Below, piece by piece: positions 11,661-60,542 of a DNA stretch of 64,000 bases. The notes below the pieces were generated by a model. It was not told the origin of the DNA. It saw only the letters and a program-made list of their open reading frames with translations, and made no database searches. Both the position numbers and the translations under genes were made by a program. The DNA lies in contig JASLYX010000003.1 in the NCBI GenBank assembly GCA_030739585.1, forward strand, positions 147,633 through 211,632, in the 5' to 3' direction. This DNA is from Candidatus Bathyarchaeota archaeon. Its GTDB lineage: Archaea > Thermoproteota > Bathyarchaeia > TCS64. Numbering within the stretch: position 1 is the first letter of the stretch; every line of letters starts with the position of its first letter.

Positions 11661-11661
11661 T

Positions 11662-12468
11662 ATGCATATAAATATCGAAGATGTTGAACCAGTTGAGATA
11701 AGTGATGGAGTCTTTGAACGGGTGCTAATGAAGCCTGAGGACAGCCGGCCAGGGGGCCTTGGCGCCAGACACTATGTTGTAAAAGAGGATTCTACAGTCA
11801 CCTTCGAGGAACCCTTAACAGAGTTTCAGCACTACATTATTTCAGGCGTCGGTTTCTATGGGGCCAACCTCGTTCACGGGGATACGACCATTTTCGCGCC
11901 AGCAGGAACACATGGCCCCACAAGCCAGCGGAAAGGCTTGAGGAGGCACAGCATCGCCAATGTAGGTGAAGGGGAACTACGGATGTTCACAATAGCCTAC
12001 AAAGTTCCAAGACCCGCTTTCAGATGGGCCAAGTCCCGAGTAAGAAATCTACATCAAGTACCTACTCCTCACCAAACAAGGTACGGATATACACAGATAA
12101 TAACAGAGGAAGAACACGCCATTATGGGAGCTCTGAAGATGCATGCAATTGACATACAGACACATCCGGGAGGATATGGCAGAGGAAAAATAGATCCAAA
12201 AACAGGGAAAAAGATCGGAGGCAGGAATCCCGAGGAGATACTGTACTGTCTTAGAGGTCTCGGAGAGTTCATGGGAGGCTTAGAAGGCGGTGAGGTAAGC
12301 ACTGCAAAGCCGGGATCGTTTGGTTATGTCACAGAGGGAGCCCTCCATGGAATATGGCACTCAACTAGCGATGTTCTCCAATATGTATGCATGGAGTTTA
12401 TAGAACACGACAAGAGCTGGACAGAAAGAGGCTATCAAGGCGAAGTAAGCCCCGCAGATTGGAAGTAA
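11662..12468 (+). CDS. bicupin-family protein, paralogue 2 (tandem with 10911)
   Basis: Start placed at MHINIEDV to match the paralogues' MHVNINDV. The ORF track extends to 11626. Shares the motifs PRPAFRWAKSRVRNLHQVP, TEEEHAIMGALKMHAIDIQTHP, NPEEILYCLRG.GE and KPGSFGYVTEGALHG. Confidence 0.6.
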   Translation: MHINIEDVEPVEISDGVFERVLMKPEDSRPGGLGARHYVVKEDSTVTFEEPLTEFQHYIISGVGFYGANLVHGDTTIFAPAGTHGPTSQRKGLRRHSIANVGEGELRMFTIAYKVPRPAFRWAKSRVRNLHQVPTPHQTRYGYTQIITEEEHAIMGALKMHAIDIQTHPGGYGRGKIDPKTGKKIGGRNPEEILYCLRGLGEFMGGLEGGEVSTAKPGSFGYVTEGALHGIWHSTSDVLQYVCMEFIEHDKSWTERGYQGEVSPADWK

Positions 12469-12636: not shown

Positions 12637-14565
12637 TTAAATCTGATAGGCCACAAATGTGGCCTCGTGGATAGCCTCAAGAATTCGACTAGGTCTGACA
12701 CAGTCACCTATTTTATACAGTTCGTTAACCTGACCCTCCAAGCTATCGTATAACTCATCACAAGAACGAGAGCCTACGGCTATCACAACAGTGCCCGCTT
12801 TGAAAACATGCTTTTTCGAGTTTGCCCCAGTCGCTTCCAAGCTGTCAGATGATATCTTGTTGACCTTCATTGAGGTGAAAACCCTAACCCCCATCTCTTG
12901 AAACCTTTCAAGCAGGAAAACTTTGCTGAAAGGCTCCATGTCTATCCCGACATCAGAGAGCATCTCTATTACAGCTACGGTCTTACCCTTCTCTGCAAGG
13001 TATTCAGCAGTCTCTAGTCCTACCATTCCTCCGCCCACGACGAACACATTATCTTTTGCTTTGAATTCACCGGCCAAGACCTCCCAAGCACTGACCACGT
13101 TAGGACCATCTACTCCAGGAATTCTGGGGATAATCTGTACGGACCCAGTTGCAACTACAACTGCATCTGGTGTTTCATTTTGAACTAGTTCCCTTGTAAC
13201 CTCTTTCCTGAGGACAATATTTACACCTGATTTGGCAGCTTGATTCACTAGATAATCAGTATAATAATTGATTTCTTCTTTTAGGGGTGGTGTGCCTGCC
13301 AGTATAAGCTGTCCACCTAGCATTCCCTGCTTTTCGTAAAGAGTTACATCGTGACCTCTTTGCGCTGCAACAGTCGCAGCAGTCATACCAGCAGGACCGC
13401 CTCCTATTACAAGTACTCGTTTCTGTTGTTTAGCCAGGGATAAAGGATAATTTTGAATTCGACCCAAATTCGGGTTAACTGTGCAATGTACCCGTATGTT
13501 TCTAGAAGTAGCCATCTCGCAACGGAGGCATGCGAAACAAGGCGTAATATCGTCAAATTTCCCCCTTCTCGCCTTAATCGGGAGCTCCGGGTCAGCAAAA
13601 AGCGCTCTCCCCATGGCGACTAGGTCTGCCTTTCCCTCCACTAATATTTGCTCAGCCAATCTGGGATCGTTTATCCTACCGACAGCGATAACGGGAATAT
13701 CGACAGTCTCCTTAATACCCTGAGCAAGATGGACATAAGCCGCCCTAGGGATGCACATAGGGGGCATTGCCTTATGATAGGACTCTACGATGCCCATGGT
13801 GACATCTATGCAAGATACGCCTGCGTCTGCTAGGTTTTTTGCGATGAACTTGTTGTCCTCAAGGGTGAGCCCCCCCTCTATGAATTCATCCCCGCTTATC
13901 CGCACCATTTGAGGGAAATCTTTACCTACTTTTTCCCTAGTCCTCTCGATGATTTCTAAGAGAAAGGTCAATCTCTTCTGAGGGGTCCCCCCATATGCAT
14001 CGGTCCGCTTGTTGACGAAAGGAGAGAGAAATTGGGAGATCAGATACCCACTAGCACCATGGTATTCTATTGCGTCGAAGCCGGCCTCTTTAGCTCTGAA
14101 CGATGCTTTGGCGAAGGCTTCAACCAAATAGTCTATTTCGTCCAAAGTTAGAGCTCTTGCGGTTGTCCCGTATGGCGCGCAGAATGCCTTTGAAGGCGCT
14201 ATTGGTACTTCGCCTACAGCTTCCGATGAAGAGATTGCTCTTCCTCCAAGGCTTAGCTGAATCGCTATCTTAGCCTTATGGATATGGACCGCTTCAACGA
14301 TGTCGTTAAGGCCACGTATATGCTCGTCAGTATCTATCCTCAGACGACCCGTCTTTTTTTCAAACGTAGTATCCACAAGGACCCAAGGGACTATAAGCAG
14401 GCCAGTTCCACCCTGTGCCCTGGTGAAATAATGATTAATGTGATAGCTGGTCGCTTCGCCTGAGACACTAGCGAAGCGGGTTCCCATAGGAGGCATCACT
14501 ATCCTGTTTTTTACCTCCATAGTCCCTATTCGAATTGGTTCAAATAGTCGAGTAAGAGCGGTCAT
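12637..14565 (-). CDS. Old-Yellow-Enzyme / 2,4-dienoyl-CoA reductase-like FMN+FAD+[4Fe-4S] oxidoreductase
   Basis: 642 aa. N-terminal OYE TIM-barrel (…NRIVMPPMGT…HGASGYLISQFLSP…), central CFACLRCE…C Fe-S motif, C-terminal Rossmann GGGPAGM. Confidence 0.8.
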   Translation of the reverse strand: MTALTRLFEPIRIGTMEVKNRIVMPPMGTRFASVSGEATSYHINHYFTRAQGGTGLLIVPWVLVDTTFEKKTGRLRIDTDEHIRGLNDIVEAVHIHKAKIAIQLSLGGRAISSSEAVGEVPIAPSKAFCAPYGTTARALTLDEIDYLVEAFAKASFRAKEAGFDAIEYHGASGYLISQFLSPFVNKRTDAYGGTPQKRLTFLLEIIERTREKVGKDFPQMVRISGDEFIEGGLTLEDNKFIAKNLADAGVSCIDVTMGIVESYHKAMPPMCIPRAAYVHLAQGIKETVDIPVIAVGRINDPRLAEQILVEGKADLVAMGRALFADPELPIKARRGKFDDITPCFACLRCEMATSRNIRVHCTVNPNLGRIQNYPLSLAKQQKRVLVIGGGPAGMTAATVAAQRGHDVTLYEKQGMLGGQLILAGTPPLKEEINYYTDYLVNQAAKSGVNIVLRKEVTRELVQNETPDAVVVATGSVQIIPRIPGVDGPNVVSAWEVLAGEFKAKDNVFVVGGGMVGLETAEYLAEKGKTVAVIEMLSDVGIDMEPFSKVFLLERFQEMGVRVFTSMKVNKISSDSLEATGANSKKHVFKAGTVVIAVGSRSCDELYDSLEGQVNELYKIGDCVRPSRILEAIHEATFVAYQI

Positions 14566-14706
14566 GCTTTCAATACCTCACAGGGAGCTATTTTAAAATT
14601 TTCCGACAGCCTCTTATTTGAAATAAATGCGAGTCATTGATTGAAACAAAAGAAATAAAAAGGAAGAGAACCCTGCAAGAAGGTCCTCTTTAAGTTTCAA
14701 ATATCA

Positions 14707-15888
14707 TTAGAGGTTGTAGGCCGCTATATAGGGAGCCCGCCAGTTTATGTACCAACCAAGGGTCTTGCATCCGGTGTCAGTTACTATGACGGTATCCTTA
14801 GAACGCCAGATCTCTCCATCTGGGCCGGATATAACTGGGTCTAGGACCAAAATCATTCCTGGCTTCAACTCTGTGTCATCGGTAGCGGTAAGATAGGGTG
14901 GCTCGTGGGATGTTACTCCTATTCCGTGGCCAACTCCAAGACCGTTTAGTAGCTTGATACCATCGTTTCCCGCCTTCTCTAATACAGAGTTATAGACCTT
15001 ACTGCATTTCACCCCAGGTTTGATAGTATCCATCGCCTTTTTCCTTAGCGATATTAGATCATTGAAAGTTTTGCTCTGCTCTGCGGTTGGTTCACCATTG
15101 ATCACCGTTCTAGTCGCATCAGACCAATAACCATCATAAGAGCTAACCATACCCAAACGCACAAGCTCCCCATTCTGTAACACCTTCTCCCAGCCAATCG
15201 CATATCGATCAACTAAGGGCCACATTTTTTTCGCGCTTATGCCAGATGCAGCTTGGGCCATAGAGTGATGTCCAACAGTATCGAGGCCTCGCTCCATGCA
15301 GTGAACCCTGGTGTCCTCTGCCAATGCCATCTCGGTCTTGGGATGTGTAACAATGATGTGATGAGCGGAACCGACGATTCCGTGGTCAGTCCGATAAGCT
15401 ACATCCTCAAGGAGCTCCGCTTCTTCGGATGTCTTGGTCATCCTGAGTGTTTTTATCCAATCACTGCAATCCACAATCTCTAGTCCAGAGAGAGCATTCT
15501 CAATATTATTGAATAGAGCGTTGGACACCCGATTCAGGTCAAGTCCGATCTTTCCCCCGTTATCAACTAACCCTTTGAGCTCCTCGGCTAGGGTTTTACT
15601 AGCGGGTTTAATGCTATCCTCTCCCTCCGTGTAGGGTGAGACTTTCTCAAGCCAACTCATGTTGCGAAGTGTCGATTCCCACTCAACGGGGCATATACAG
15701 ATTCTAATCCCATTTTTTGGCCATATTACTATCACGGGTCGGTCAGGGTAGCTATAGAGGAAAGGCATTGAGGCGCCACTAAGATATAGAACGTTATCCG
15801 AACCTACAGCTACTATTGCGTCATATTCAGAATTTTCTATTGCATTACAAACCTTTTCTTTTATACCGAGTTTCTTCATTTTTTTCAT
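14707..15888 (-). CDS. M24 family pita-bread hydrolase (creatinase/prolidase/ectoine-hydrolase-like)
   Basis: C-terminal domain has HGIGVTSHEPPYL, DTGC and other metal-ligand motifs. N-terminal creatinase-type domain. Confidence 0.8.
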   Translation of the reverse strand: MKKMKKLGIKEKVCNAIENSEYDAIVAVGSDNVLYLSGASMPFLYSYPDRPVIVIWPKNGIRICICPVEWESTLRNMSWLEKVSPYTEGEDSIKPASKTLAEELKGLVDNGGKIGLDLNRVSNALFNNIENALSGLEIVDCSDWIKTLRMTKTSEEAELLEDVAYRTDHGIVGSAHHIIVTHPKTEMALAEDTRVHCMERGLDTVGHHSMAQAASGISAKKMWPLVDRYAIGWEKVLQNGELVRLGMVSSYDGYWSDATRTVINGEPTAEQSKTFNDLISLRKKAMDTIKPGVKCSKVYNSVLEKAGNDGIKLLNGLGVGHGIGVTSHEPPYLTATDDTELKPGMILVLDPVISGPDGEIWRSKDTVIVTDTGCKTLGWYINWRAPYIAAYNL

Positions 15889-15891
15889 CTC

Positions 15892-17049
15892 CTAATGTGT
15901 CGACCTGAATCCTATCACAGAATATAGCTTGTCCCATGTCTTATACCAGCTAAGAAGAGTTGGAGAACTCTCCGTGATTTTGTAGATATCTTTAGAGTGG
16001 ATTAGCTCTTTTTCTGGACCATAAGTATAAACATCAAGTGCTATGACCATACCAGGTCTAAGGACGGTTTCATCCAAGGAGTTCAAGAAGGGGGCTTCTC
16101 TGTGGCTGACACCAACGCCATGACCAATCCCAGCCTCCTCAAAGAACGGTATCCCAAGCTCATAGGCTTTCTTTTTCACCTCGGCGAAAGCTTCGTTGCA
16201 TTTGGTGCCAGACTTGAGAGTCGCGAGGGCCACAGATTTTATCCTGAGGTTGTTCTCAAAAGCAGCTGACTGCTCATGAGTCGGATTTCCGATCACAGCC
16301 ATACGACCTGCATTTGACCAGTATCCTTTGAGGTGATTTGTTATATCTATCCGGGCAAGGTCCCCCTCCTTAATCCATCCTCTCTGAGCAGTGTAAAACA
16401 TCTGGGCAGCAGCTCCCACCTGAGTTGCCATGTGCTCTACGCCAGTGCCTCCGAATTCAAAGACATGAACTCTCACTCTCTCCGTAAACTCATTGATAGT
16501 ATATCCAGGGACAGCGACGGTCCCCTCTAAATGCATTAAAGCAGTGATGATTCCCAGCTCAGATTGATATGCTGCAGACTCGATTAATTTCACCTCCTGG
16601 GGAGTTTTTAATAAGCGAAGATCTCTGAGCACACTATCAAAAGGTATCCATTCAACATCAGAGATAATCTGTTTTAAATTATCTATAAATTGTTTTGATG
16701 CTCGGGTTTCGTCAATCCCGATTTTAGCTTTTTCAAGACCGAGTCGCGCCATTAGGACCTTGATTGTCCCGATGAGTGCCTTTGGGGGTAGGTCTTTGTT
16801 TTCGTCATAAGCTACCAGCTCCCCATTCCAGCCTTGGTCTCTTACTGCTTCCTCCCAGTCAATGGGACATGCAATACCACCTAGTCCCTCCTTGGTATGA
16901 AGCACTACAGCCTGCCTGTCCGGGTAATTGGAAGCAAAGGGGAGGATTAGATGACTCACATAGGTGAAGTTATCCACACCTATTACCAATAATGCATCCA
17001 GATCCTCGGTTGCTATGGCAGTATTAATTTTCTTATCGATCTCAATCAT
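15892..17049 (-). CDS. M24 family pita-bread hydrolase, tandem paralogue
   Basis: GHGVGVSHREAPFL motif. 4-nt spacing from the upstream paralogue suggests co-transcription. Confidence 0.8.
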   Translation of the reverse strand: MIEIDKKINTAIATEDLDALLVIGVDNFTYVSHLILPFASNYPDRQAVVLHTKEGLGGIACPIDWEEAVRDQGWNGELVAYDENKDLPPKALIGTIKVLMARLGLEKAKIGIDETRASKQFIDNLKQIISDVEWIPFDSVLRDLRLLKTPQEVKLIESAAYQSELGIITALMHLEGTVAVPGYTINEFTERVRVHVFEFGGTGVEHMATQVGAAAQMFYTAQRGWIKEGDLARIDITNHLKGYWSNAGRMAVIGNPTHEQSAAFENNLRIKSVALATLKSGTKCNEAFAEVKKKAYELGIPFFEEAGIGHGVGVSHREAPFLNSLDETVLRPGMVIALDVYTYGPEKELIHSKDIYKITESSPTLLSWYKTWDKLYSVIGFRSTH

Positions 17050-17147
17050 TTATTCATTCTTCCTTCCTGTTTTACGGAGATTACCATTCCAAATACGATA
17101 TGCGGAATTAAACGTTTTCGAGAGTGAACCGGTGTTCTTAAATAAAC

Positions 17148-18185
17148 TTGGATATCGCTTTCCTTATTATGTCAGGAGACAGTTTTAACCCTTTAGAAGT
17201 CAAAAAGGGAGAAAAAAAATTCGGATACGTGCCTATTGTAGATACGGTAGCAGCGAAGTTTGATATGCCCGTGGGCGTCGTTAATGGTGTTAATGATGGT
17301 CCCACCCTCGCAGTGACCGGAGGACTGTATCCCACTGAGTACTGTGGCGTCGAGGCAGCCTCCAGATTATACCAGCTCTTGGACCCCGAGAAACTATCGG
17401 GGCGGTTTATCACCATCCCCGTGATGAACATGAACGCGCTCCAGTTCCGAGTACCCGGACTAAACCTAACATCCTCCTCCACGACCCCCGTCGACAGGGG
17501 GAGAATAAACAGCTCATTCCCAGGGGACCCCGAGGGGAGACCCACCCAGATTCTCGCCCACAAGACGTTCAATATCCTCTCTAAAGCGAATTACCACGTC
17601 GACTTCAGGGGAGGAGACCTGAACGAGTCCCATCTCGTTCACACTATCGTGCTGAGGGCCGGAAAAGACACCGATGAGACAGGTGAAACCATGGCGAAAG
17701 TCGTCGGATACGAGTATGTGCTACCCAGCACCCCGGAGATAGGACACACGAGACCCGGCACGATGGTCTACGAACTGAACAACGCCGGTGTTGCCTCCAT
17801 CATCACCGAGAGCGGCCTTGGATACAGAGAGCAACCTCTCGAGGAGTTTGTCGAGTTGCACATCAGTGGCACATTGAACCTCTTGAAGCACTTCGGCATG
17901 AGCGAGGGTGAACCGACGAAGCCCAAGAATCAGAGATACCTGAACAGCAAATGGAATAGGGCGCCTGCCCCGGTTTCAGGCATCTGGACCGCCACCGCCG
18001 ACTATGGAGACATCTTCGAGAAAGGGGACGTTCTCGGCAGGATCACCGACCTCGACGGCTCCACGCTGGCAGAAGTGAACGCTCCGATCAGCGGTATCGT
18101 TCACACCATGTTCCCGAAGCGGGTAGTCCACAAGAACGACCCGCTGTTCCTGCTCCTTGAGATCGAGGGCAAAACAGGGTACTAG
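17148..18185 (+). CDS. AstE/AspA-family (succinylglutamate desuccinylase/aspartoacylase-like) deacylase paralogue; first Zn-ligand His replaced (YPTE)
   Basis: Family resemblance to 22259 and 23365 (…NGVNDGPTLAVTGG…E..GVEA…). The HxxE zinc motif reads LYPTE here. Confidence 0.6.
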   Translation: MDIAFLIMSGDSFNPLEVKKGEKKFGYVPIVDTVAAKFDMPVGVVNGVNDGPTLAVTGGLYPTEYCGVEAASRLYQLLDPEKLSGRFITIPVMNMNALQFRVPGLNLTSSSTTPVDRGRINSSFPGDPEGRPTQILAHKTFNILSKANYHVDFRGGDLNESHLVHTIVLRAGKDTDETGETMAKVVGYEYVLPSTPEIGHTRPGTMVYELNNAGVASIITESGLGYREQPLEEFVELHISGTLNLLKHFGMSEGEPTKPKNQRYLNSKWNRAPAPVSGIWTATADYGDIFEKGDVLGRITDLDGSTLAEVNAPISGIVHTMFPKRVVHKNDPLFLLLEIEGKTGY

Positions 18186-18359
18186 CAAGAGAGATTTTCC
18201 GAGGGACATTCATTCCCTCACTTTTTCTACTTATTTTGGTTCCATTTATTTTTTGTACCAAAGCAATTTTGTTTATAATGATCTATCCAAAAGTAAATTT
18301 GAATTCCATTTTTTAAATGAAAAAATAGTTATATAGGACAAATCTAATCTTTTTGGAAT

Positions 18360-19235
18360 ATGACAAAGTATCTTTTAGCAGATATGACTTCTGCCGAAGC
18401 TGCGAAGATAGTGAAAGAAAGGAAGATCGTTGTTGTGCCGGTGGGGGCGATACATAAGCATGGCGATGGTCCACTTGGAACAGATATGTTCTCCTGTACA
18501 GAGCTCGCTAGAAGGCTTGGCGAGGCAATTCCAGATAAAGTGATAGTTGTCCCGACACTCCCCTACGGAGTATCAGGCAGCGCTACTCTACCTGGGACTA
18601 TAAAAACTTCACAAGAACCTGTAAGGCAAATAATCAAGGAGATCTCGATGTCATTCGTCAAATTCGGTATCAAACACTTCTTATTTCTCACCGGCCACGG
18701 TGGGAATGACGGTGCATACCTGAGCGTAGCAAGAGAGCTCAATAAATTGGGAGTGTTATGTGCCTACGTCAGGTGGTGGGATCTTATGATCCAGCTGGAG
18801 GGGGACAAGAATCCAAACTTTAGAAACGTCAACCTCTTGGAACAAAGCGTTGACGCTGCATGCGGTAAAAATGACCCCTCGGTCTTGAGAGACGGCGAAG
18901 GCAGAACAGGGGCTTTCCAGCAACGTCTCCGAAAAGACGTGCTTAACGATAAGTTCAGTTCACCCGTGAAAATTGATGGGACCCTTATTTGTGCGGGCTC
19001 TGATCCCAAACTCACGAGTGTCCCTCATGGAGTGGTATACAATAAGGGGACAATTCAGATGCCGCTCCCTAGAGCAAAGGTGGATATAGATGATCCTGAG
19101 CCAGGCGAATGGGTGAGCATCTCCGACAAAGTTAGTGCAGAACAAGGCGATTACATACTGAACACTTGCAGAGACTGGCTTGTTGAGTTCTTAGCAGACT
19201 TTGAAACCCTCGAGATCCCGGAAAAATACCTATAA
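18360..19235 (+). CDS. creatininase-family cyclic amidohydrolase
   Basis: VVVPVGAIHKHGDGPLGTD… and LFLTGHGGN motifs are characteristic of the creatinine amidohydrolase fold. Confidence 0.75.
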   Translation: MTKYLLADMTSAEAAKIVKERKIVVVPVGAIHKHGDGPLGTDMFSCTELARRLGEAIPDKVIVVPTLPYGVSGSATLPGTIKTSQEPVRQIIKEISMSFVKFGIKHFLFLTGHGGNDGAYLSVARELNKLGVLCAYVRWWDLMIQLEGDKNPNFRNVNLLEQSVDAACGKNDPSVLRDGEGRTGAFQQRLRKDVLNDKFSSPVKIDGTLICAGSDPKLTSVPHGVVYNKGTIQMPLPRAKVDIDDPEPGEWVSISDKVSAEQGDYILNTCRDWLVEFLADFETLEIPEKYL

Positions 19236-19254
19236 AAAACAAATACCAGTAACC

Positions 19255-19290
19255 CTTTTTTTTCTTTTTACCATTTTTTCTTTGAACTCC
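19255..19290 (+). terminator. oligo-T tract after creatininase gene
   Basis: cccttttttttctttttaccattttttcttt. Confidence 0.3.
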
Positions 19291-19378
19291 ATTATTTGTA
19301 TCTATATGTTGAGGTAGATATCATATTTTCACTTTCTGAAAACGCTTAATACTAATCAACAATACTCTGAAGATTACT

Positions 19379-20545
19379 ATGGGAAAAAGATGGATATCAA
19401 AAAACCTGAAAAAAATGGAGCCCGACCCGTTTGGTGAATTAAGAGAAAAGATCCGCCACATGTCTAACGTAATCAATCTTAGTAGCGGAGATCCAGACTT
19501 CCCGACCCCGTCCCATATCGTTGAAGCGGCGTATAGGGCTCTCCAAGATGGATATACACACTACACGCTCACCAGTGGTCTTCCCGAGCTCAAAGAGGAG
19601 ATCGCTCAATACCAAAGGAAATTCCATATGAATCTGGATCCAGAAGGAGAAATATTGGTTACACCGGGAAGTCAACAAGCCTTGTTCCTGACACTCACCA
19701 GCATACTAAATAATGCAGATGAAGTTTTAATACCCGACCCGAGCTACACGGTTTATTCTCCAATCATTAAATATCTCGGAGCAAAGCCGATCATCTTTCC
19801 CTTGAACAGGGAAAATAACTTCCATATCGATCTACCAACCTTGGAAAAGAAAATTTCTCCCAAAACCAAGGCGCTAATAATTTGTTCTCCAAATAATCCC
19901 ACAGGAACTGTCTTCTCAGATGCTGACTTAGAGACAGTTGCAGCTATTGCCATAGAGAATGAGCTCCTTGTGATATCAGACGAGATTTACAGCGAGTTTG
20001 TCTGGAAAGGGAAACACAAATCGATCGCAACCTATCCAGGAATGAAAAATAGAACAGTGGTTATCGTAAGCTTTTCCAAGACCTTTTCCATGACCGGCTG
20101 GAGATTGGGTTACTTAATTGCAAACCAAGAGCTTACACAGATGATGGGGGGCCTTCAGGCTAATATGGTCATTTGCCCTGCTGGATTCGTTCAGAGAGCG
20201 GGGCTGGCCGCCCTTCAGGGGTCATGGGAGCCAGTGACTTTAATGGCTCAAGAGTACGAGAAAAGGGTAGATTATGTAGTCCAGCGCCTTAACGCATTAA
20301 AGGGTATATCCTGCCGCAAACCTGAAGGCGCCTTCTACGTCTGGGTTGATGTCTCGGCGCTTTGCCCCTCCAGCATTGACTTTTGCAACGACCTCCTCGA
20401 AAAGAAAGCACTCATAACAATGGCTGGAAAGTATTTCGGTCAACAAGGCGAGGGTTTCGTCAGATTAGCTCTGGTCAAACCCATGGATGTTTTAACTGAA
20501 GCTTTGGATAGAATGGACTCATACATCAACGGATTGGATATCTGA
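19379..20545 (+). CDS. class I/II PLP aminotransferase (aspartate aminotransferase-like)
   Basis: SFSKTFSMTGWRLGY PLP-lysine motif, 388 aa. Confidence 0.85.
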   Translation: MGKRWISKNLKKMEPDPFGELREKIRHMSNVINLSSGDPDFPTPSHIVEAAYRALQDGYTHYTLTSGLPELKEEIAQYQRKFHMNLDPEGEILVTPGSQQALFLTLTSILNNADEVLIPDPSYTVYSPIIKYLGAKPIIFPLNRENNFHIDLPTLEKKISPKTKALIICSPNNPTGTVFSDADLETVAAIAIENELLVISDEIYSEFVWKGKHKSIATYPGMKNRTVVIVSFSKTFSMTGWRLGYLIANQELTQMMGGLQANMVICPAGFVQRAGLAALQGSWEPVTLMAQEYEKRVDYVVQRLNALKGISCRKPEGAFYVWVDVSALCPSSIDFCNDLLEKKALITMAGKYFGQQGEGFVRLALVKPMDVLTEALDRMDSYINGLDI

Positions 20546-20701
20546 GATATTCGTCTCCCGTGTGTTCAACATTGCACATATCTTCAATGCATTTGTTTGT
20601 TTAATAATCACTTAAATCAAAGAGATTCAACGCACTAAATAGAAAAATAAGATACCCTCAATCGGGGGGTACATTGTATCAAATGAAGCTGCTGAAAAAA
20701 A

Positions 20702-22219
20702 TCAAGGAGAGCCATCATCTATTAGTTTGTATCCTGTCCAAAAATTGTCTCCACTATTCAGGTATTTGTCAAGTGAGTATCCTAGACTCTCGAAACGTTG
20801 GAAAGCAAGCTCTATCTCAGCACGGGCAAACCTCACAACTTCTGATTCATCAACGGTTTTCACTATTCTGTTCTCCATCAGAATCTTCCCGCGTACCATC
20901 GCAGTTGTGACATCGTGACCCGAACCGAAATATACCAAAAGTTGAGGAATATCCCTCAGCGGCGTATAGTGCGGACGATTTGAATTTATCAGTATGATAT
21001 CAGCCTGTTTCCCCACCTCAATGGAACCTATCTCTTTTTCGAGTCCAAGAACACGGGCTGCATCTATAGTTACCATTCTAAGAGCTTTCCCAGCGGGTAA
21101 ATAACTCGGGTTTTGTTCGTGATATCTCTGGATCAGGATCTCGTTCCTCATACTAAGGAAAAGGTCATAGGACATGTGTGGCGCTGCTCCGTCAGTTGAG
21201 GTTGCGACACAAACACCACTTTTAATAAGATCAGGAACGGGACACCGTCCGTGCCTGGTGGGTTCCGTTGCGGAAGGAGCCGTGGCGATCTTTGTATCAG
21301 TCTGGGAAATGATCTCAATCTCTTTCGCAGTAAGCCCGTTGCAATGAGCAAGAACAACGTCGGGACCGAACAGTTTGAAGATATTTTCTTTCCCGAACTT
21401 TTCAAGGCCGAACTCAAGTGCATCACCATAGAGGTGAGTGTGAATTTGAACCCCATATTTGTCCGCGAGCCGCCTCATCTCCATGGCTTTTTCCAGGAGG
21501 ACAGGGATGTCTTCGTCTCTATAGTTATAGGTAGCATCGTGTTTGGAGTGAGACGGCAGTCTCCCGCAAAGATACGGGAAAGAAAGGCAAACATATATCC
21601 TGCCATCCGCTTCCATGTGCCATTTTTCTATAACTTTTTTAGTATTTTCAATTGTCTCGTCATAGGTGTAGATATGTTTTGAAGGCTTTCCATCCGCCCA
21701 TATCGTTGACTCTAGACGGTTCTGTCCTGGAAGGAAGGGATCGGGAGGACCCACACCAATAACGGCCCTAATTCCCACCTCTTTTACGGCTTTAGCATTA
21801 TTGTCAGCCCAAGCGGGAGAGTCAAGTCGTGCTGGAGTCGCGCCAATAATAGAGACACCAGTTGTTGTTCCGGATTTTAACCGGTCTACAGCCGCGAGTA
21901 AACCATCGGCATACCAGAACTCCTCTGTGGATGCATTGAAGTAAAGATCGCTAGAGGGCCAACCTTTGAATGGGTTCCAGATACCTTTTATCATCGCGTG
22001 GCCTGCATGGGCATAGGTGTCAATTAGTCCGGGCAGAATGACAGAGTTTGAAGCGTCAATTACTCTGTCTGGATTGTATTTAGCCCCTAATTCTCCATGG
22101 GCTCCGATGTCTACGATTATCCCATTTTTGACTGCAATGGCTCCCTTTGTTATGATGTCATTTCGGGGGTTCATTGTGAGAATAGTCCCATTCTCAATGA
22201 GTAGATCTAGATCATACAT
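20702..22219 (-). CDS. amidohydrolase-superfamily metal-dependent hydrolase
   Basis: 505 aa. N-terminal ILPGLIDTYAHAGH (HxH-like metal motif), TIM-barrel amidohydrolase layout, C-terminal beta-sandwich. Confidence 0.7.
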   Translation of the reverse strand: MYDLDLLIENGTILTMNPRNDIITKGAIAVKNGIIVDIGAHGELGAKYNPDRVIDASNSVILPGLIDTYAHAGHAMIKGIWNPFKGWPSSDLYFNASTEEFWYADGLLAAVDRLKSGTTTGVSIIGATPARLDSPAWADNNAKAVKEVGIRAVIGVGPPDPFLPGQNRLESTIWADGKPSKHIYTYDETIENTKKVIEKWHMEADGRIYVCLSFPYLCGRLPSHSKHDATYNYRDEDIPVLLEKAMEMRRLADKYGVQIHTHLYGDALEFGLEKFGKENIFKLFGPDVVLAHCNGLTAKEIEIISQTDTKIATAPSATEPTRHGRCPVPDLIKSGVCVATSTDGAAPHMSYDLFLSMRNEILIQRYHEQNPSYLPAGKALRMVTIDAARVLGLEKEIGSIEVGKQADIILINSNRPHYTPLRDIPQLLVYFGSGHDVTTAMVRGKILMENRIVKTVDESEVVRFARAEIELAFQRFESLGYSLDKYLNSGDNFWTGYKLIDDGSP

Positions 22220-22258
22220 CTGGAACTCCCCCCTTTTTTCATTAGGGCTTGCTTATGT

Positions 22259-23272
22259 TTATGGGGGGGAGATGGAGATCAGACGTCCCCCCTCCTCTAT
22301 TGGACCATAGGTTCTGATGAAAATAACTAGCCCATCTATTGGTGCTTTGATCTCTTCAATCCCTTTTGGTATAGAGTGGACCTCGGCGAGCAACTGTCCC
22401 TTTTTGACAGAATCTCCGTTATCTACAACAGGATTGAATATTCCGCCGTTGACCGTTCTAACCGTTTTGGTGCCATCCTCTAAAGGATCCACTACAATCC
22501 TCTCTCCTTGATCAACGATCTCTCCGTCCAACATTTCCATGGCTTTCATCACGTTGAGGACTCCGGTAATGAAATATTCCACGTATTCGTCTTCAGGTAA
22601 GCCAGAGCCGCCTTGTCCTGCTTCGGGATAGATTCCAGCTCTACCCTCCCTCACGGCGACAAAAGGCATTGCCAATTGGACAGGCCATCCATAGTCCTCC
22701 TCATTATCTCCTTGGATGATGCGGTCTCCCCCAAAGGCAATTGATAGTTCAAGTGATCGTTTTCCTGCTCCGTTCCCAATTTCAGGGGGGGTATAGGCCA
22801 TGGGGTTATTAGACCCGCCCCGGCCTGCAGTATGCATATCGATTACACAGTCAGCCTCTGAGGCCAGCGTATTCAAGATATACTTCATTCTCTTGGAATA
22901 GGACCCTGTGGGTGATCCTGGGTGGACCCAATCGGGATCGATGGGGTCGTAGGGATTGGACCTTGATCTGAACACGTATCCTGCGGGATTCTGAACAGGT
23001 ACGAGGATTAGTTCACCTTTCACATCATTAAAGTCGATTTGGTCTTGCAGCCTTAGGATAGCCTCGACTCCATTAATCTCGTCGCCATGAATTCCACCGC
23101 CGACATATAACTTAGGGCCGGCTTGTTTTCCTATGATCCGAATGACATCAATATCCACCTCTACTCCACTTTTCATCTTTGTAGAAAAAGGAGGTACGGT
23201 ATTATGGGTGCCAACAGGTGGGATAGTATGTTTCTCGTAATATTTTCCGGGCTTTAAATTTTTGGAGTTCAT
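22259..23272 (-). CDS. AstE/AspA-family zinc deacylase
   Basis: GGGIHGDEINGVEA (HxxE Zn motif) and DMHTAGRG second His. Confidence 0.7.
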   Translation of the reverse strand: MNSKNLKPGKYYEKHTIPPVGTHNTVPPFSTKMKSGVEVDIDVIRIIGKQAGPKLYVGGGIHGDEINGVEAILRLQDQIDFNDVKGELILVPVQNPAGYVFRSRSNPYDPIDPDWVHPGSPTGSYSKRMKYILNTLASEADCVIDMHTAGRGGSNNPMAYTPPEIGNGAGKRSLELSIAFGGDRIIQGDNEEDYGWPVQLAMPFVAVREGRAGIYPEAGQGGSGLPEDEYVEYFITGVLNVMKAMEMLDGEIVDQGERIVVDPLEDGTKTVRTVNGGIFNPVVDNGDSVKKGQLLAEVHSIPKGIEEIKAPIDGLVIFIRTYGPIEEGGRLISISPP

Positions 23273-23364
23273 CGTTAATTAAATAATATAATTGCTTTTA
23301 AAAATAACTATGTCTAGATCAAATATAGTTAGACACAATTAAAAAAAGAAAGAAGATTTTGGGG

Positions 23365-24357
23365 TCACTCTATCTCTCGAATATCTTTACCTATCTCGTA
23401 GGTCACATCGCCTTCCCAAACTGCAGGTGAGGTGATCATATGGATGACACCGTCTGTTGGTACCACAATTTCTTCCAAGATCTTGCCATTCAGGTTCCGA
23501 ATCTCCCCTAGAACGTCCCCCTTTGTAACCAAGTCACCCCCCTTAACGTTTGAGATAAAGAATCCGCCATGTTCTGCGTACATATGATAGGGATTAAAGA
23601 CATTAGCCTTTTTTGGAATTTCCGGCTTTCCATCCATCATGTTTAGATGTTTGAGAGTATTTTGACAGCCTTTGACGACCATCTCTACTATATCTGATGT
23701 GCAGCGACCCATTCCTCCCGCTTCAGTTCCCACGGTCATTGGCATATATCGCCTCTTTCTCGGAGGCGATCCTGGGCGAGGCTTCCTGATCCCTTCCCTG
23801 ATCCACTTCCAGCCGAAGTTTCTGGCCATCGCCAGGTTCTCGTCATCTCTTTGTTGGTCTCCGTATCTACCGTACATGACACCGGTCAGCACGTCTTCCT
23901 CGAGATCTCCTCCGTGGAGGTTTAGTCTAAACTGGCTCTGGGCCAAGACCTCTTTATAGAAGGTCATTGCTAGCTGGTAGCTGTGCTTAGGGACTCCAGA
24001 TCCTCCTCTTGGGATTTTGTCAACATAACACCCACCTATATCCCGATAATCTATGGGGTTCCCATGCATCCACCGTGACTCGAATGCGAGCGTGTTCACC
24101 ACGGGTACAAGGATTATTTTTCCATTAATGTTGTCAGGATTTATATCCTCAATCAGCTTGAGACACCCAGCAGGGCCATTGTATTCTGATCCATGCTCAC
24201 CACCGTTTATACACAGAGTGGGGCCGTCCCCAGCCCCATTCACTAGAGTAATTGGAACTTGATGTTTATACGCGGGCCGTTCGTGAATGTACAAATCGCC
24301 CTGTACTTTTGTTCCCTTAGACGCTTCAAGATTCTGAACTTTTAGAGTGTCAGACAT
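23365..24357 (-). CDS. AstE/AspA-family zinc deacylase
   Basis: NGGEHGSEYNGPAG and NLHGGDLEED motifs. Paralogue of 22259. Confidence 0.7.
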   Translation of the reverse strand: MSDTLKVQNLEASKGTKVQGDLYIHERPAYKHQVPITLVNGAGDGPTLCINGGEHGSEYNGPAGCLKLIEDINPDNINGKIILVPVVNTLAFESRWMHGNPIDYRDIGGCYVDKIPRGGSGVPKHSYQLAMTFYKEVLAQSQFRLNLHGGDLEEDVLTGVMYGRYGDQQRDDENLAMARNFGWKWIREGIRKPRPGSPPRKRRYMPMTVGTEAGGMGRCTSDIVEMVVKGCQNTLKHLNMMDGKPEIPKKANVFNPYHMYAEHGGFFISNVKGGDLVTKGDVLGEIRNLNGKILEEIVVPTDGVIHMITSPAVWEGDVTYEIGKDIREIE

Positions 24358-24512
24358 ATCTCAATCAGTTGAAAGTTTCACATATCGAAATATAAACCAT
24401 GTCTTGTTTTATCCCAAGGTATTACGTCGAAAGGGACACCAGTCTGATGTAGAATAGGTAGCTATTCCCGTAAGATATTAAAATTGGATGTCGGCTTCAT
24501 TGATCCCACGGA

Positions 24513-25670
24513 TTGATCATGAAGGATATATTGGAGGACATCCGAGTTCTAGACCTCACCCAGTTCTGGTTTGGCCCTTACTGTACATTACTCTTAGCGG
24601 AGATGGGAGCAGAAGTTATTCGTGTTGAACCACCTTGGGGGGGCATCGATAGAATTGCCGATGGAGCCTTATTTGGCGGATCGAGTTATACTTTTCACCA
24701 TCACAATCTGAACAAGAAGGGGCTCACACTGAACCTCAAGTCACTCGAAGGGATCAAACTCTTCAAATCACTTGTGAAAGCATCAGACGTTGTCGTCCAG
24801 AACTTTAGACAGGGCAGCATGGAAAAACTTGGACTTGGTTATGAGGTGCTAAAGGGATTAAATCCAAAAATCATCTATGCCGCTCTATCTGGATTTGGCC
24901 AGTACGGCCCATACGCCAAACGTGGCTCTTTCGCTATGATCGCCGAAGCTATGAGTGGACACAGTCGCCTAACAGGTGACCTAGTTGATCCAAACGGTCC
25001 ACCACGTGAGATGGCTCAAGCATATGGAGATCTCGCCCCTGCAATTTTCGCAGCGATGAGCATCGTTTCCGCGATACGGTACAGGGATAAAACGCAACAG
25101 GGACAGATGATAGATGTGGCACAATTGGACTGCATGGTAGCTCTGAATACGGCCACAACAGGGTATAACCTCTCCGGACTCAAGCTCTGGGAGCTGAAGG
25201 ATAAGTTTCCAATGGGACGGGGTTTCGGGGGTCTAATAAAGACTGTGGACAATGGGTGGATCCGTTATGCGAGCTTCTCACCACGGATTATTGAAAGACT
25301 GAAGAGTCATCTTGGTGTTGATGAAATCGATGAAGAGAAGATTGCAGAACAAATTGGGAAAAAAAATAGAGAGGAGGCAGTGGAATTCTTCGTGAAGGCT
25401 GGAGTACCTGTAGCACCGGTTTATGATGTCGATGAAGTAGTGATAGATCCCCACTTGAAAGCCCGTGAAATGTTCGTAGATGTCAAACATCCTAAGGCAG
25501 GAGCTGTGAGAGTGCCTAACTTCCCAGTGAAATTCTCGGAGACTCCAGGAAAAATAGTTAATGCGGCCCCTCTACTTGGAGAGCACAGTAAAGAGATACT
25601 TGTAAGTTTATTAGGACTTTCGGGAGAACAAGTCTTTGAATTAGAGAAAAAGGGAGTCACTTCGACGTAG
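24513..25670 (+). CDS. family III CoA-transferase (CaiB/BaiF)
   Basis: RVLDLTQFWFGPYCTLLLAEMGAEVIRVEPP N-terminal signature. Confidence 0.85.
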   Translation: MIMKDILEDIRVLDLTQFWFGPYCTLLLAEMGAEVIRVEPPWGGIDRIADGALFGGSSYTFHHHNLNKKGLTLNLKSLEGIKLFKSLVKASDVVVQNFRQGSMEKLGLGYEVLKGLNPKIIYAALSGFGQYGPYAKRGSFAMIAEAMSGHSRLTGDLVDPNGPPREMAQAYGDLAPAIFAAMSIVSAIRYRDKTQQGQMIDVAQLDCMVALNTATTGYNLSGLKLWELKDKFPMGRGFGGLIKTVDNGWIRYASFSPRIIERLKSHLGVDEIDEEKIAEQIGKKNREEAVEFFVKAGVPVAPVYDVDEVVIDPHLKAREMFVDVKHPKAGAVRVPNFPVKFSETPGKIVNAAPLLGEHSKEILVSLLGLSGEQVFELEKKGVTST

Positions 25671-27221: not shown

Positions 27222-27386
27222 ATAATCTCACTATTGGTTTGTAATCTCAACTAGAAAATAACGTTTTTGAGTCTTTTTTGGTTAAACAAAAGGCTTGCAT
27301 CCGAACGCACAAGTAAAAGCTATTGGGCTAATGGCTACTATAATAAATTTCAAATACAAGAACAGAGTCGATTACTTCGATTCAAC

Positions 27387-30235: not shown

Positions 30236-30451
30236 TCTCTTCTAGCTGTTTGAACTATGTTCTATATGTTGATATTGTTATTAGATAATTTTTTTAATTG
30301 AGTTAAATGGGAGACAACAGTAATTCAAGAGAGTTCTCCTAATTAAAAAGGATGGATGTAGGGATATTAAGAGGGACTATAAATATGTTGAAGATAACCG
30401 AGGGTAAAAAGTTTTATATGTTGATTTAAATTAAATTAAATAGAAATTAAA

Positions 30452-60535: not shown

Positions 60536-60542
60536 TATCACA
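60531..60542. promoter_or_regulatory. perfect 12-bp palindrome TGTGATATCACA (candidate operator); related half-sites cluster at 60793-60852
   Basis: Read directly. Additional GTGTGATATCAT, GGATATCACACC, AAATCACAT and ACATGTGATT copies upstream of the wHTH regulator gene. Confidence 0.3.

Follow-up and report, generated by a model that had tools for sequence, protein, structure and literature searches.

Two paired-paralogue hydrolase modules in a putative catabolic gene island of a mesopelagic Bathyarchaeon

The locus

The island described here belongs to a Candidatus Bathyarchaeota MAG obtained from Tara mesopelagic samples, the host being a pelagic Bathyarchaeon. Within the window, i.e. the whole 64-kb stretch of DNA that was analyzed, positions 12637-25670 hold a real 13-kb cluster of C–N bond hydrolases. 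Pfam analysis retrieved all ten ORFs of the original prediction, with the same coordinates and domains; three further genes, outside the interval, are linked to it.

12637-14565, minus strand: FadH/NCR-like OYE + FAD/NAD(P) enoyl-(CoA) reductase (Oxidored_FMN and Pyr_redox_2)
14707-15888, minus strand: M24A, likely catalytic partner of a tandem (Creatinase_N and Peptidase_M24; Pfam, 99.7 bits)
15892-17049, minus strand: M24B, degenerate partner of the tandem (Creatinase_N and Peptidase_M24; Pfam, 83 bits)
17148-18185, plus strand: AstE1 (AstE_AspA_cat), both Zn-ligand His missing (Y...E...R)
18360-19235, plus strand: creatininase-family metal hydrolase (PF02633, 114.6 bits, N-terminal 142 residues only)
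19379-20545, plus strand: class I (aspartate/aromatic-type) PLP aminotransferase (Aminotran_1_2, 255 bits)
20702-22219, minus strand: TRZ/ATZ-type, deaminase-like amidohydrolase with a variant metal motif (Amidohydro_1, 147 bits)
22259-23272, minus strand: AstE2 (AstE_AspA_cat), canonical Zn deacylase, H-E-H kept
23365-24357, minus strand: AstE3 (AstE_AspA_cat), canonical Zn deacylase, conserved partner of AstE1
24513-25670, plus strand: family III (CaiB/BaiF) CoA-transferase (CoA_transf_3, 299.6 bits)
8663-9700, plus strand (outside, linked): DUF362 protein (PF04015)
25977-27221, minus strand (outside, linked): HExxH...E protein with a predicted winged-helix domain, candidate regulator
28286-30235, minus strand (outside, linked): S9 acyl-peptide hydrolase-type serine peptidase (Peptidase_S9 and PD40)

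The island is probably catabolic and is compositionally distinct from its flanks, with a mean gene GC of ~0.46 as compared to ~0.53. Most of its intergenic gaps carry T-tracts and TATA-like boxes, which suggests that the genes are mostly separate transcription units. A gamma-glutamyltranspeptidase, a canonical prolidase and two AFORs are encoded in the same neighbourhood, while no importer gene is present anywhere in the 64-kb window. Comparative genomics covered ~130 loci. Since orthologues of most island genes, with the exceptions of AstE2 and the aminotransferase, recur jointly and in differing orders on independent contigs, their clustering goes beyond chance. In loci L049, L050, L057 and L136, for example, orthologues of the creatininase-family, OYE, CoA-transferase, cupin and HExxH genes are reshuffled with AstE1 or the M24 pair.

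The AstE3-AstE1 pair

AstE1, whose start is mostly placed at 17169 by gene callers (338 aa), lacks the family's Zn site. The replacement of its first Zn-ligand His, already spotted in the original prediction, is confirmed by alignment to 3cdx and 6twl (GGLYPTEY, H to Y); the same alignment reveals that the second is replaced as well (VDFRGGD, H to R), the ligand Glu being retained. The Y/F/R-E-R pattern, together with the equivalent of the catalytic Glu, is found in 118/118 representatives of the AstE1 family. These are 57-84% identical and retain E64, R154 and E221. The family encompasses at least 230 clusters, mostly from Bathyarchaeota where the organism is given.

AstE3, whose PDB relatives are 3cdx and DoeB (6twl), belongs to a group in which H-E-H is kept in 36/36 orthologues. 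Such orthologues (62-75% identity) occur in 44 of the 70 loci with an AstE1-type gene, and in 27 of 46 judgeable metagenome loci they immediately precede AstE1, with gaps mostly between -55 and +35 bp. Recurrent partners of the two genes are DUF362, SDR, EamA, OCD, the S9 acyl-peptide hydrolase and the island's amidohydrolase. DUF362 orthologues lie ~2 kb upstream of AstE3-AstE1 in 26/70 loci; DUF362 shares a Pfam clan with the N-terminal domain of LarA (PMC11770544). S9 orthologues precede DUF362-AstE3-AstE1 arrays in six of the 70 loci, and orthologues of the amidohydrolase (39-45% identity) flank them, up- or downstream, in six loci. AstE3-AstE1 is a widespread enzyme pair, previously uncharacterised. 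As characterised family members are dimeric, the Zn-binding AstE3 and its Zn-less paralogue would form a heterodimer, in which AstE1 would be either a metal-independent variant or a subunit that handles substrate or has no catalytic role. Both the heterodimer and a catalytic competence of AstE1 are proposed on the basis of gene order and conserved residues only.

The third family member, AstE2, sits 39 bp upstream of the amidohydrolase, and a close orthologue is absent from the other loci examined.

The M24B-M24A pair

Only 3 bp separate the M24B and M24A ORFs, and M24B lies directly upstream of M24A in 34/38 M24A-bearing loci. The tandem occurs in Bathyarchaeia, Chloroflexi, Desulfovibrionaceae (including the cultured Bilophila wadsworthia) and others, and represents a second widespread and previously uncharacterised module. 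The canonical DDHEE metal-ligand set is absent throughout both families, whereas it is present in three other M24 types compared; the true DDHEE prolidase of the window has a gene of its own (34946-36064). M24B displays DNHDK instead, and only 17 of 27 members of its family retain the ligand His, ligand 5 being K or R. In M24A the ligands are GDHDK, the family pattern being mostly E/G-D-H-D-K, with the His retained in 36/37 members. M24A forms a discrete family of 79 clusters scoring at least 245 bits, after which scores fall to ~100 bits. Its invariant residues include H177, H196, R244, Y254, H321, E329 and D365, and 21 positions are invariant across 32 sequences of 36-73% identity. The AF2 model of M24A (pLDDT 91) predicts a fold equidistant from those of prolidase, creatinase, EutD and DddP.

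M24B and M24A are probably co-transcribed and may assemble as a heterodimer of creatinase/prolidase fold devoid of a dinuclear metal centre, in which the conserved residues that are candidates for catalysis would be those of M24A, with M24B as the degenerate partner. This assembly, as well as the catalytic competence of either subunit, is deduced from the gene arrangement and the conserved residues only. The loss of metal ligands in M24A, M24B and AstE1 could also reflect a binding or regulatory role instead of catalysis.

The neighbours of the M24 pair vary. A VOC gene lies upstream in 14 loci and SHMT directly upstream in eight Bathyarchaeia loci, while an Asp/Glu racemase is found nearby in four; in L050, carbamate-kinase-like and OTCase-like genes adjoin M24A. 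An AstE gene follows directly downstream in 11 Bathyarchaeia loci. The general idea of the original prediction, that the M24 proteins work with an AstE/AspA deacylase and not as ordinary peptidases, holds. Bacterial M24 pairs are coupled mostly to Opp/Dpp-type peptide importers, with OppB/C and SBP_bac_5 genes directly downstream in six loci, and the Bilophila pair neighbours an SBP_bac_3 ABC system and PhzF. The M24 and AstE3-AstE1 pairs are mostly found apart, the former being present in only 2/70 AstE1 loci, and may therefore serve different substrates.

Accessory enzymes

The creatininase-family protein falls under the MftE, creatininase and IolN cut-offs, its subfamily being left unassigned. 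Its motifs HKHGD...GTD...GHGGN are present in 7/7 orthologues. These are tied to AstE1 through racemase and TusA/DsrE genes in L049, L050, L074 and L136, and in L056, L067 and L071 the AstE1 and creatininase-family genes are ~2 kb apart. More generally, cyclic-amide-type neighbours (Asp/Glu/hydantoin racemase, creatininase family, hydantoinase A/B) are recurrent. The nearest relatives of the amidohydrolase are AtzA and the MTA/SAH deaminases, with the first His of HxH being Tyr in 5/6 orthologues.

The best solved relatives of the reductase are 2-naphthoyl-CoA reductase (6qkg, 320 bits) and FadH (1ps9, 267 bits); an orthologue follows M24A in L049 (76%) and another is found in L136 (61%). The CoA-transferase has formyl-CoA and succinate-hydroxymethylglutarate CoA-transferases as PDB relatives, and orthologues of 70-76% identity in L050 and L057. 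The aminotransferase reaches no equivalog cut-off, and other loci with the modules do not conserve it; AstE2 and the CoA module are likewise poorly conserved with either pair. The S9 peptidase has 8wt1, the acyl-peptide hydrolase 5yzm, PH0594 and AARE as PDB relatives.

Function of the island

Our preferred reading, to which we give about an even chance, is that the island combines two paired-paralogue hydrolase modules with accessory enzymes in order to scavenge N-substituted or cyclic amino-acid derivatives or unusual dipeptides. The accessories would be the creatininase-family enzyme, the amidohydrolase, AstE2, the aminotransferase, the CoA-transferase and reductase couple, the S9 enzyme, DUF362, cupins and the candidate HExxH-wHTH regulator. 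Small N-substituted derivatives would be taken up or released, some of them perhaps through action of the S9 enzyme on blocked peptides; candidates are N-acyl or N-carbamoyl amino acids, cyclic amides or amidines, and unusual (iso-, D-, cyclic) dipeptides. Either the M24 pair, the creatininase-family enzyme or the amidohydrolase may then open them, before the AstE enzymes remove the acyl group. The free amino acid would be transaminated and a carboxylic-acid product converted to a CoA thioester, with reduction of its C=C bond.

The original prediction favoured degradation of ectoine or creatinine. Its association of M24 hydrolases with AstE deacylases stands; its specific assignments are not supported. 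A pathway in which DoeA/DoeB analogues would break down ectoine, hydroxyectoine or a closely similar cyclic amidine osmolyte ahead of a transamination step is very improbable, even though true DoeA likewise lacks the M24 metal ligands, M24-AstE adjacency recurs, the fold of M24A is about as close to EutD (TM 0.76-0.78) as to other M24 types, and related loci hold families matching EutA (racemase) and EutC (OCD), one OCD in L010 being 38% identical to EutC. The DoeA model gives 68 bits (cut-off 575) and the DoeB model 78-85 bits (cut-off 402.7). M24A matches DoeA with E=1e-9 (24% identity) and M24B with 3e-5, more weakly than the window's canonical prolidase does (3e-24). Moreover, the co-occurring racemases do not match EutA, a two-subunit M24 and a Zn-less AstE1 have no eut/doe counterpart, and bacterial M24 pairs keep company with Opp/Dpp importers. 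The aminotransferase is of class I and not a class III DABA transaminase, which the window lacks, together with an Ehu/Ueh/Tea-type importer and an aspartate-semialdehyde dehydrogenase. Creatinine- or creatine-type (guanidino/glycocyamidine) degradation, in which the creatininase-family enzyme would open the ring and the M24 pair would release urea as a creatinase-like amidinohydrolase, is likewise very improbable. The two genes are 1.3 kb apart, the M24A model superposes on creatinases (TM 0.79-0.81), the SHMT gene upstream of the pair in eight Bathyarchaeia loci makes glycine a possible product, carbamate-kinase-like and OTCase-like genes adjoin M24A in L050, and a haloarchaeal plasmid groups creatininase and AstE with sarcosine/one-carbon genes. 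Nevertheless, the creatininase model gives 51 bits against a cut-off of 235, with the first ligand Glu replaced by His; PDB matches to creatinase (1e-14) are weaker than those to prolidase (5e-24); the creatininase-family gene tracks AstE1 and not the M24 pair in most loci; and neither sarcosine oxidase/dehydrogenase nor urease is encoded in the window. The island is most probably not an ectoine or creatinine pathway.

The original prediction had set its osmolyte against generic proteolysis, too strongly so, as the S9 acyl-peptide hydrolase, gamma-glutamyltranspeptidase and canonical prolidase lie in the same neighbourhood. Salvage of N-terminally blocked peptides is unlikely but has some merit: the S9 enzyme would free N-acyl amino acids, AstE2 and AstE3/AstE1 would deacylate them, and the aminotransferase would channel the amino acid into fermentation, with peptide trimming as the separate activity of the M24 pair and the remaining hydrolases. 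Acyl-peptide hydrolases and AARE are the group in which the S9 enzyme falls, the two AFORs lie close by, as do the transpeptidase and the prolidase, Opp/Dpp importers flank the bacterial M24 pair, and AstE paralogues alternate with oligopeptide ABC systems and an M20 peptidase on a Cytobacillus plasmid. However, the S9 gene is restricted to the six AstE1 loci mentioned above, and this scheme leaves unexplained both the metal-site loss in M24A/M24B and AstE1 and the recurrent racemase, creatininase-family, TusA/DsrE and hydantoinase neighbours. It is distinctly unlikely that the island has no functional unity, i.e. that unrelated hydrolase genes accreted in a flexible genome region, the ligand-poor proteins being non-catalytic relics. 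The apparently separate transcription units, the lower GC and the separation of the two pairs in other genomes would fit such an accretion, whereas the joint recurrence of most island orthologues (not AstE2 or the aminotransferase) in several arrangements and the strong conservation of AstE1 and M24A argue against it.

Comparison with known systems

The enzymes of the CphZ/AstE/aspartoacylase family are dimers whose substrates are N-acyl or beta-linked acidic amino acids. CphZ, a homodimer with isodipeptidase activity, requires the H-E-H Zn triad as well as a catalytic Glu (PMC9974463). AstE2 and AstE3 have both of these elements and also the two-domain fold, whereas in AstE1 the His residues are changed to Y/F and R, despite its high conservation and its pairing with AstE3. 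No such pairing of a catalytic with a degenerate paralogue was found in the literature searched.

Canonical M24B Xaa-Pro dipeptidases/aminopeptidases P (1pv9, 2zsg) are the best sequence and fold matches of the M24 pair (88 bits, TM 0.74-0.80) and share its two-domain architecture. In contrast to them, the pair never has all five metal ligands at once, the Glu of ligand 5 being replaced throughout by K, R, S or N.

In mammals, AARE acts with aminoacylases of the AstE/AspA family (ACY2/ACY3). The island similarly links an S9 acyl-peptide-hydrolase-type enzyme to AstE/AspA-type deacylases, but the link exists in a minority of loci and ring-opening-type enzymes are present in addition. The creatininase and creatinase system involves the same two superfamilies, and creatinase is also a metal-free M24 protein; here, however, scores stay below the subfamily models, the ligand pattern of M24A is that of its own family, and sarcosine-handling enzymes are absent from the window.

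EutD and EutE function as a bimodule (PMC8739950). In the EutD/DoeA-EutE/DoeB system (6twj, 6twk, 6yo9, 6twl, 6twm), as in the island, an M24 protein without dinuclear metal accompanies an AstE/AspA-fold deacylase, and racemase and OCD-family genes are common to that system and to island-related loci. Identities are 18-27% to DoeA and 23-35% to DoeB, the island-related racemases are unrelated to EutA, the M24 component of the island is a pair of two paralogues, and AstE1, the deacylase next to it, has no Zn site. In its proposed logic the island resembles EutD/EutE, with genes that are not orthologous.

Gene content and setting of the island

ORF listing combined with Pfam and NCBIfam scans recovered all the genes named in the original prediction, at the coordinates it had assigned to them. 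None of the ten island proteins reaches an NCBIfam equivalog cut-off.

Genes of the island as assigned by Pfam/NCBIfam (coordinates in the window, strand, product)
12637-14565, minus: FadH-like OYE + Pyr_redox_2 reductase (OYE)
14707-15888, minus: M24A, Creatinase_N + Peptidase_M24
15892-17049, minus: M24B, Creatinase_N + Peptidase_M24
17148-18185, plus: AstE1, AstE_AspA_cat
18360-19235, plus: creatininase-family protein
19379-20545, plus: class I aminotransferase
20702-22219, minus: TRZ/ATZ-type amidohydrolase
22259-23272, minus: AstE2, AstE_AspA_cat
23365-24357, minus: AstE3, AstE_AspA_cat
24513-25670, plus: family III CoA-transferase

Identical proteins are present in NCBI (Candidatus Bathyarchaeota archaeon MBQ03219-MBQ03232, assembly GCA_002726865.1) and in Tara mesopelagic samples, and many marine assemblies hold near-identical copies of the island. 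The remainder of the window encodes archaeal core machinery (PolD DP1 and DP2, RPA, GGGP synthase). The flanks also contain a gamma-glutamyltranspeptidase, an alanine racemase, a DUF362 protein, five bicupin-like paralogues, an S9 peptidase, a canonical prolidase and two aldehyde:ferredoxin oxidoreductases; no solute importer gene was found in the 64-kb window. Genes between 8.6 and 34.6 kb have a GC content of 0.37-0.49, with the exception of AstE1 (0.54), as compared to 0.50-0.58 in the flanks; over the ~26-kb block at 8663-34586, coding GC is ~0.46 versus ~0.53 in the flanking housekeeping genes. An integrated-element origin of this block was considered and not retained: neither an integrase nor an att-like repeat of the nearby tRNA-Met was found, which leaves the GC difference alone. 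This tRNA-Met (CAU; 5298-5404, minus strand), missed by ARAGORN and scoring 59 bits with Rfam, bears a ~33-nt insertion after the anticodon arm, which resembles an archaeal intron in a non-canonical place. Most island genes are set apart by T-tracts and TATA-like boxes, and only two neighboring pairs have the appearance of co-transcription, M24B/M24A (3 bp apart) and AstE2/amidohydrolase (39 bp apart).

Several other features are found in the surroundings. Shortly before the island, this archaeon encodes the alanine racemase (7310-8494) and the gamma-glutamyltranspeptidase (3475-5136); considered alongside the racemases of related loci, they hint at the use of D-amino-acid or gamma-linked peptides. 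The five bicupin-like paralogues (~250-280 aa; 10911-11660, 11626-12468, 27267-28091, 30452-31222 and 31226-32032) have orthologues alongside AstE1 and creatininase-family genes in loci L049, L056, L057, L133 and L136 from other genomes or metagenomes. Their assignment as ureidoglycine aminohydrolases was discarded, the matches being insignificant (E 0.001-0.005). ORF 10392-10784 (plus strand, 130 aa) matches no family; in eight soil/peat Bathyarchaeia genomes, its orthologues (40-48% identical) precede the M24 pair by 1-5 kb. NCBIfam provides no specific name for the cupins, DUF362, the HExxH protein (25977-27221) or the 130-aa ORFs. The decamer TATATGTTGA occurs three times exactly (19303-19312, 30263-30272 and 30415-30424; 0.10 expected), each time in intergenic DNA that resembles a promoter: ahead of the aminotransferase and in the spacer between the divergent S9 and cupin genes. 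It was picked by eye and, with one mismatch allowed, is not significant, and it was rejected as a shared promoter motif. Finally, two ORFs of GC 0.24 and 0.36 (60101-61774), between NAD synthase and PolD DP1, sit within a 2-kb stretch of 0.29 GC that may be foreign or fast-evolving DNA.

The M24B-M24A pair

M24A belongs to a discrete family: 79 clusters score at least 245 bits, after which scores drop to ~100 bits, the level of generic M24 proteins. A scan of one genome per species, using an alignment of 10 sequences, showed that most of the family is found in Bathyarchaeia and Anaerolineae/Chloroflexia; Desulfovibrionaceae (including the cultured Bilophila wadsworthia ATCC 49260), Spirochaetes and Clostridia-type MAGs contribute a few members. 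Of 38 loci with M24A, 34 have an M24B orthologue as its immediate upstream neighbor; of the other four, three lie where the contig ends and one adjoins transposases.

In place of the DDHEE metal ligands of canonical Xaa-Pro dipeptidases, the window proteins display GDHDK (M24A) and DNHDK (M24B), and none of 64 members of the two families has DDHEE. The histidine is kept in 36/37 M24A sequences, in which ligand 4 is D, R, S, N, A, C or T and ligand 5 is K, S, R or N; it is kept in just 17/27 M24B sequences. The DDHEE motif was observed in the controls, namely the window prolidase, the fourth M24 protein of the window and the L058-type M24 of related loci. To note, this fourth protein (48479-49813, plus strand, 444 aa) keeps DDHEE while matching Peptidase_M24 with only 45 bits.

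The AF2 model of M24A (pLDDT 91) exhibits TM-scores of 0.70-0.80 with prolidases, 0.79-0.81 with creatinases, 0.76-0.78 with EutD and 0.75-0.77 with DddP, at 16-23% identity, and the fold search did not tell these four subfamilies apart. The predicted fold is of the two-domain creatinase/prolidase type and, since it superposes equally on all four, M24A would belong to no characterised subfamily.

The surroundings of the pair are informative. A glyoxalase/VOC gene immediately precedes it in 14 loci, eight of them with an intervening SHMT gene. In 11 Bathyarchaeia loci the pair is immediately followed by a canonical AstE keeping H-E-H; in six loci from Chloroflexi or spirochaetes, OppB/OppC and SBP_bac_5 genes take that place. 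The Bilophila pair is preceded by an SBP_bac_3 ABC system and followed by a PhzF-like isomerase. PhzF-like genes are found near the pair in five loci, Asp/Glu racemases in four, and TldD/PmbA with a GntR regulator in L007-L009.

The AstE3-AstE1 pair

The three island AstE proteins match the AstE_AspA_cat Pfam model with 43.5, 61.3 and 53.0 bits (cut-off 25). AstE2 and AstE3 keep the H-E-H zinc triad and the catalytic Glu. The original prediction that the first Zn-ligand His is replaced in the ORF at 17148 (AstE1) was correct and even understated, as both His are gone (GGLYPTEY, VDFRGGD); the ligand Glu is kept, as aligned to the solved structures 3cdx and DoeB 6twl. The resulting Y-E-R triad is not peculiar to the window: 118 full-length protein-database representatives of the AstE1 type carry Y/F/R-E-R (one Y-G-R), all 118 keeping the catalytic-Glu equivalent, while AstE3-type proteins carry H-E-H in 36/36. 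Among AstE1-type metagenome ORFs, 59/67 are Y/F/L-E-R and six are HEH, the latter probably being distant matches at ~30% identity. Loss of canonical metal ligands is a family trait of M24A, M24B and AstE1.

The AstE1 family comprises at least 230 clusters, mostly named Bathyarchaeota where the source gives an organism. A metagenome scan with the AstE1 profile yielded 80 loci, 70 of which have an AstE1-type gene at 40% identity or more. These 70 also contain an AstE3 orthologue (62-75% identical) in 44 cases, DUF362 in 26, the amidohydrolase in six, S9 in six, the creatininase-family gene in four and the M24 pair in two. Counted from tblastn hits, AstE3 is directly upstream of AstE1 on the same strand in 27 of the 46 loci with enough upstream sequence and elsewhere in the locus in six; gaps are mostly -55 to +35 bp. 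The usual order is DUF362, an SDR gene on the opposite strand, AstE3, AstE1, and one or two EamA transporters, preceded by S9 or by another M24 with the amidohydrolase and an OCD. The characterised AstE/AspA member CphZ is a homodimer that needs the H-E-H zinc triad and the catalytic Glu (PMC9974463). Because characterised members are of this kind, we infer by analogy that AstE3 and AstE1 may dimerise with each other, AstE3 being the catalytic subunit and AstE1 a Zn-less one that would be either non-catalytic or metal-independent.

Accessory genes and links between modules

The island genes re-occur elsewhere in shuffled order. In L049 (M24A 73% identical), one strand carries a cupin, the creatininase-family gene, DsrH/E/E, TusA, an Asp/Glu racemase and AstE1, with M24B, M24A and OYE divergent from the AstE1 arm. 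L050 (58%) has the same left arm, followed by M24B-M24A, carbamate-kinase-like and OTCase-like genes, and the CoA-transferase. L136 assembles a cupin, the creatininase-family gene, DsrH/E/E, TusA, a racemase, AstE1, SDR, a thioredoxin-like gene, the HExxH protein, DUF362, a second creatininase-family gene and OYE. AstE1, AstE3, the CoA-transferase, DUF362, SDR and the creatininase-family gene are joined in L057 and L074. A 9.2-Mb genome harbors an AstE1-type gene (F-E-R) near hydantoinase A/B, a DAO-type oxidase and an amidohydrolase. The TusA and three DsrE/DsrH-like sulfur-relay genes (L049 5703-6979, L050 2316-3636, L136 2449-3675), absent from the window, lie downstream of AstE1, between the Asp/Glu/hydantoin racemase and the creatininase-family gene.

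The creatininase-family site HKHGD...GTD...GHGGN is kept in 7/7 orthologues. The amidohydrolase has Tyr for the first His of HxH in 5/6 orthologues (DTY[AG]H[AS]GH); the window protein (20702-22219, minus strand) also bears a ~150-residue insertion relative to AtzA and MTA deaminases. The reductase combines Oxidored_FMN (252 bits) and Pyr_redox_2 (120 bits) and has the FadH/NCR-type arrangement of an OYE FMN domain, an Fe-S linker and FAD/NAD(P) domains; a CxxCxxC...C cluster was spotted by eye in the translation. Its closest PDB relatives, 2-naphthoyl-CoA reductase (NCR; 6qkg, 320 bits) and FadH (1ps9, 267 bits), are both CoA-ester reductases, and it reaches no NCBIfam equivalog cut-off (BaiCD 551 vs 825). 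This closeness fits its pairing with the CoA-transferase, a full-length CoA_transf_3 protein (residues 7-359, 299.6 bits; no equivalog cut-off reached).

Proposed function and alternatives

M24B with M24A, and AstE3 with AstE1, are tightly and widely paired, have a defined domain content and keep recurrent partner families. On the basis of gene adjacency and coupling, each pair would form a heterodimer; M24A and AstE3 would be the working subunits. Substrates would proceed from opening to deacylation to transamination, with a side branch of CoA activation and enoyl reduction, and would be small N-substituted or cyclic amino-acid derivatives or unusual dipeptides. We give this general model about an even chance. 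As the two pairs are mostly apart in other loci, they may act on different but related substrates. A bolder joint claim is that they are two new obligate heteromeric C-N hydrolases, each made up of one working subunit and a paralogue that is degenerate or metal-independent, and that they open and de-acylate small cyclic or N-blocked nitrogen compounds, such as hydantoin-/thiohydantoin-type rings, diketopiperazines or N-carbamoyl amino acids; as a whole, it is tentative and rather unlikely to hold. The TusA/DsrE genes of related loci hint that some substrates carry sulfur. The thiohydantoin/ergothioneine idea is speculative, a literature search on it having returned nothing usable.

Ectoine degradation, the first of two pathways proposed in the original prediction, is a very unlikely function. 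The DoeA model NF038259 gives M24A 68 and M24B 24.6 bits (cut-off 575), and the DoeB model TIGR02994 gives the three deacylases 78.6, 84.8 and 77.8 bits (cut-off 402.7). The reference was a genuine ehuABCD-eutABC-doeA-doeB cluster on a Pararhizobium plasmid (L052). M24A is 24% identical to its DoeA (E=1e-9; M24B 3e-5), the canonical prolidase of the window being closer (3e-24); the genuine DoeA ligand pattern is E-P-Y-M/T-T; and AstE1, AstE2 and AstE3 are 23-35% identical to its DoeB. Racemases of related loci do not match EutA at all; an OCD encoded in a distant locus shares 38% identity with EutC. The transaminase expected after DoeA/DoeB is here a class I enzyme, and the 64 kb contain no class III DABA transaminase, ectoine importer (Ehu/Ueh/Tea) or aspartate-semialdehyde dehydrogenase. 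Creatinine degradation fares slightly worse. The creatininase-family protein obtains 50.8 bits with TIGR04448 (cut-off 235), its Pfam match is limited to residues 7-142, and its first ligand Glu is changed to His (HKHGD); on the M24 side, PDB phmmer gives 5.5e-24 for prolidase and 1e-14 to 2e-7 for creatinases, with equal fold TM-scores (0.74-0.80 and 0.79-0.81, respectively); and neither sarcosine oxidase nor urease was found in the window. To note, L053 (Halorientalis marina plasmid NZ_CP095488.1, 181137-182897) has a creatininase-family gene divergently paired with an AstE/AspA gene, close to three large FAD oxidoreductases, ETF, MTHFR, SHMT, an aminomethyltransferase-family protein and DHFR; it is possibly a creatinine/sarcosine-type one-carbon cluster without an M24 creatinase.

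Salvage of blocked peptides, a variant of the general model, is improbable; the neighboring S9 enzyme is of the acyl-peptide hydrolase type. It is still less probable that the island has no functional unity. The shuffled re-occurrence of the gene set is the main evidence suggesting a functionally coherent island and not a chance accretion.

Significance

Bathyarchaeia rank with the most abundant archaea of sediments and also occur in the dark ocean; their organic nitrogen diet is still largely deduced from generic 'peptidase' annotations. As judged from sequence, the 'Xaa-Pro peptidase' and 'predicted deacylase' genes considered here belong to two discrete, widely distributed, uncharacterised and mis-annotated families, which would be unable to work as annotated because their canonical metal sites are missing. 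The M24-pair and AstE1 families travel with ring-opening-type hydrolases, racemases and importers. The finding, uncharacterised subfamilies in an abundant lineage of archaea, is genuine. Defining the substrate would correct a common annotation error and name a dissolved organic nitrogen source for these archaea. It would also reveal new chemistry in two superfamilies, M24 and AstE/AspA, with two candidate pairs of a catalytic enzyme and a pseudo-enzyme among the additions. Should the pairs be obligate heteromers, a nitrogen pool outside known pathways would be open to Bathyarchaeia and, for the M24 pair, to Chloroflexi and Bilophila. As this pair also occurs in cultured Bilophila wadsworthia, it is experimentally testable.

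Comparison with the Eut/Doe bimodule

The association of M24 and AstE/AspA proteins had been likened to DoeA/DoeB. The analogy of logic stands; membership does not, in view of the curated models and the comparison with L052. In PMC8739950, which quotes Mais et al. (2020) on the juxtaposition, the Eut bimodule is defined by juxtaposed eutD and eutE, both being required, and by a transient interaction. In the window, M24B divergently adjoins AstE1, and in Bathyarchaeal relatives M24A is followed by a canonical AstE, neither protein being a Doe orthologue. The arrangement, a metal-site-free M24 hydrolase beside an AstE-fold deacylase, matches the bimodule only in outline and differs from the eutD-eutE pair in that AstE1, the neighbor of M24B, is devoid of a Zn site.
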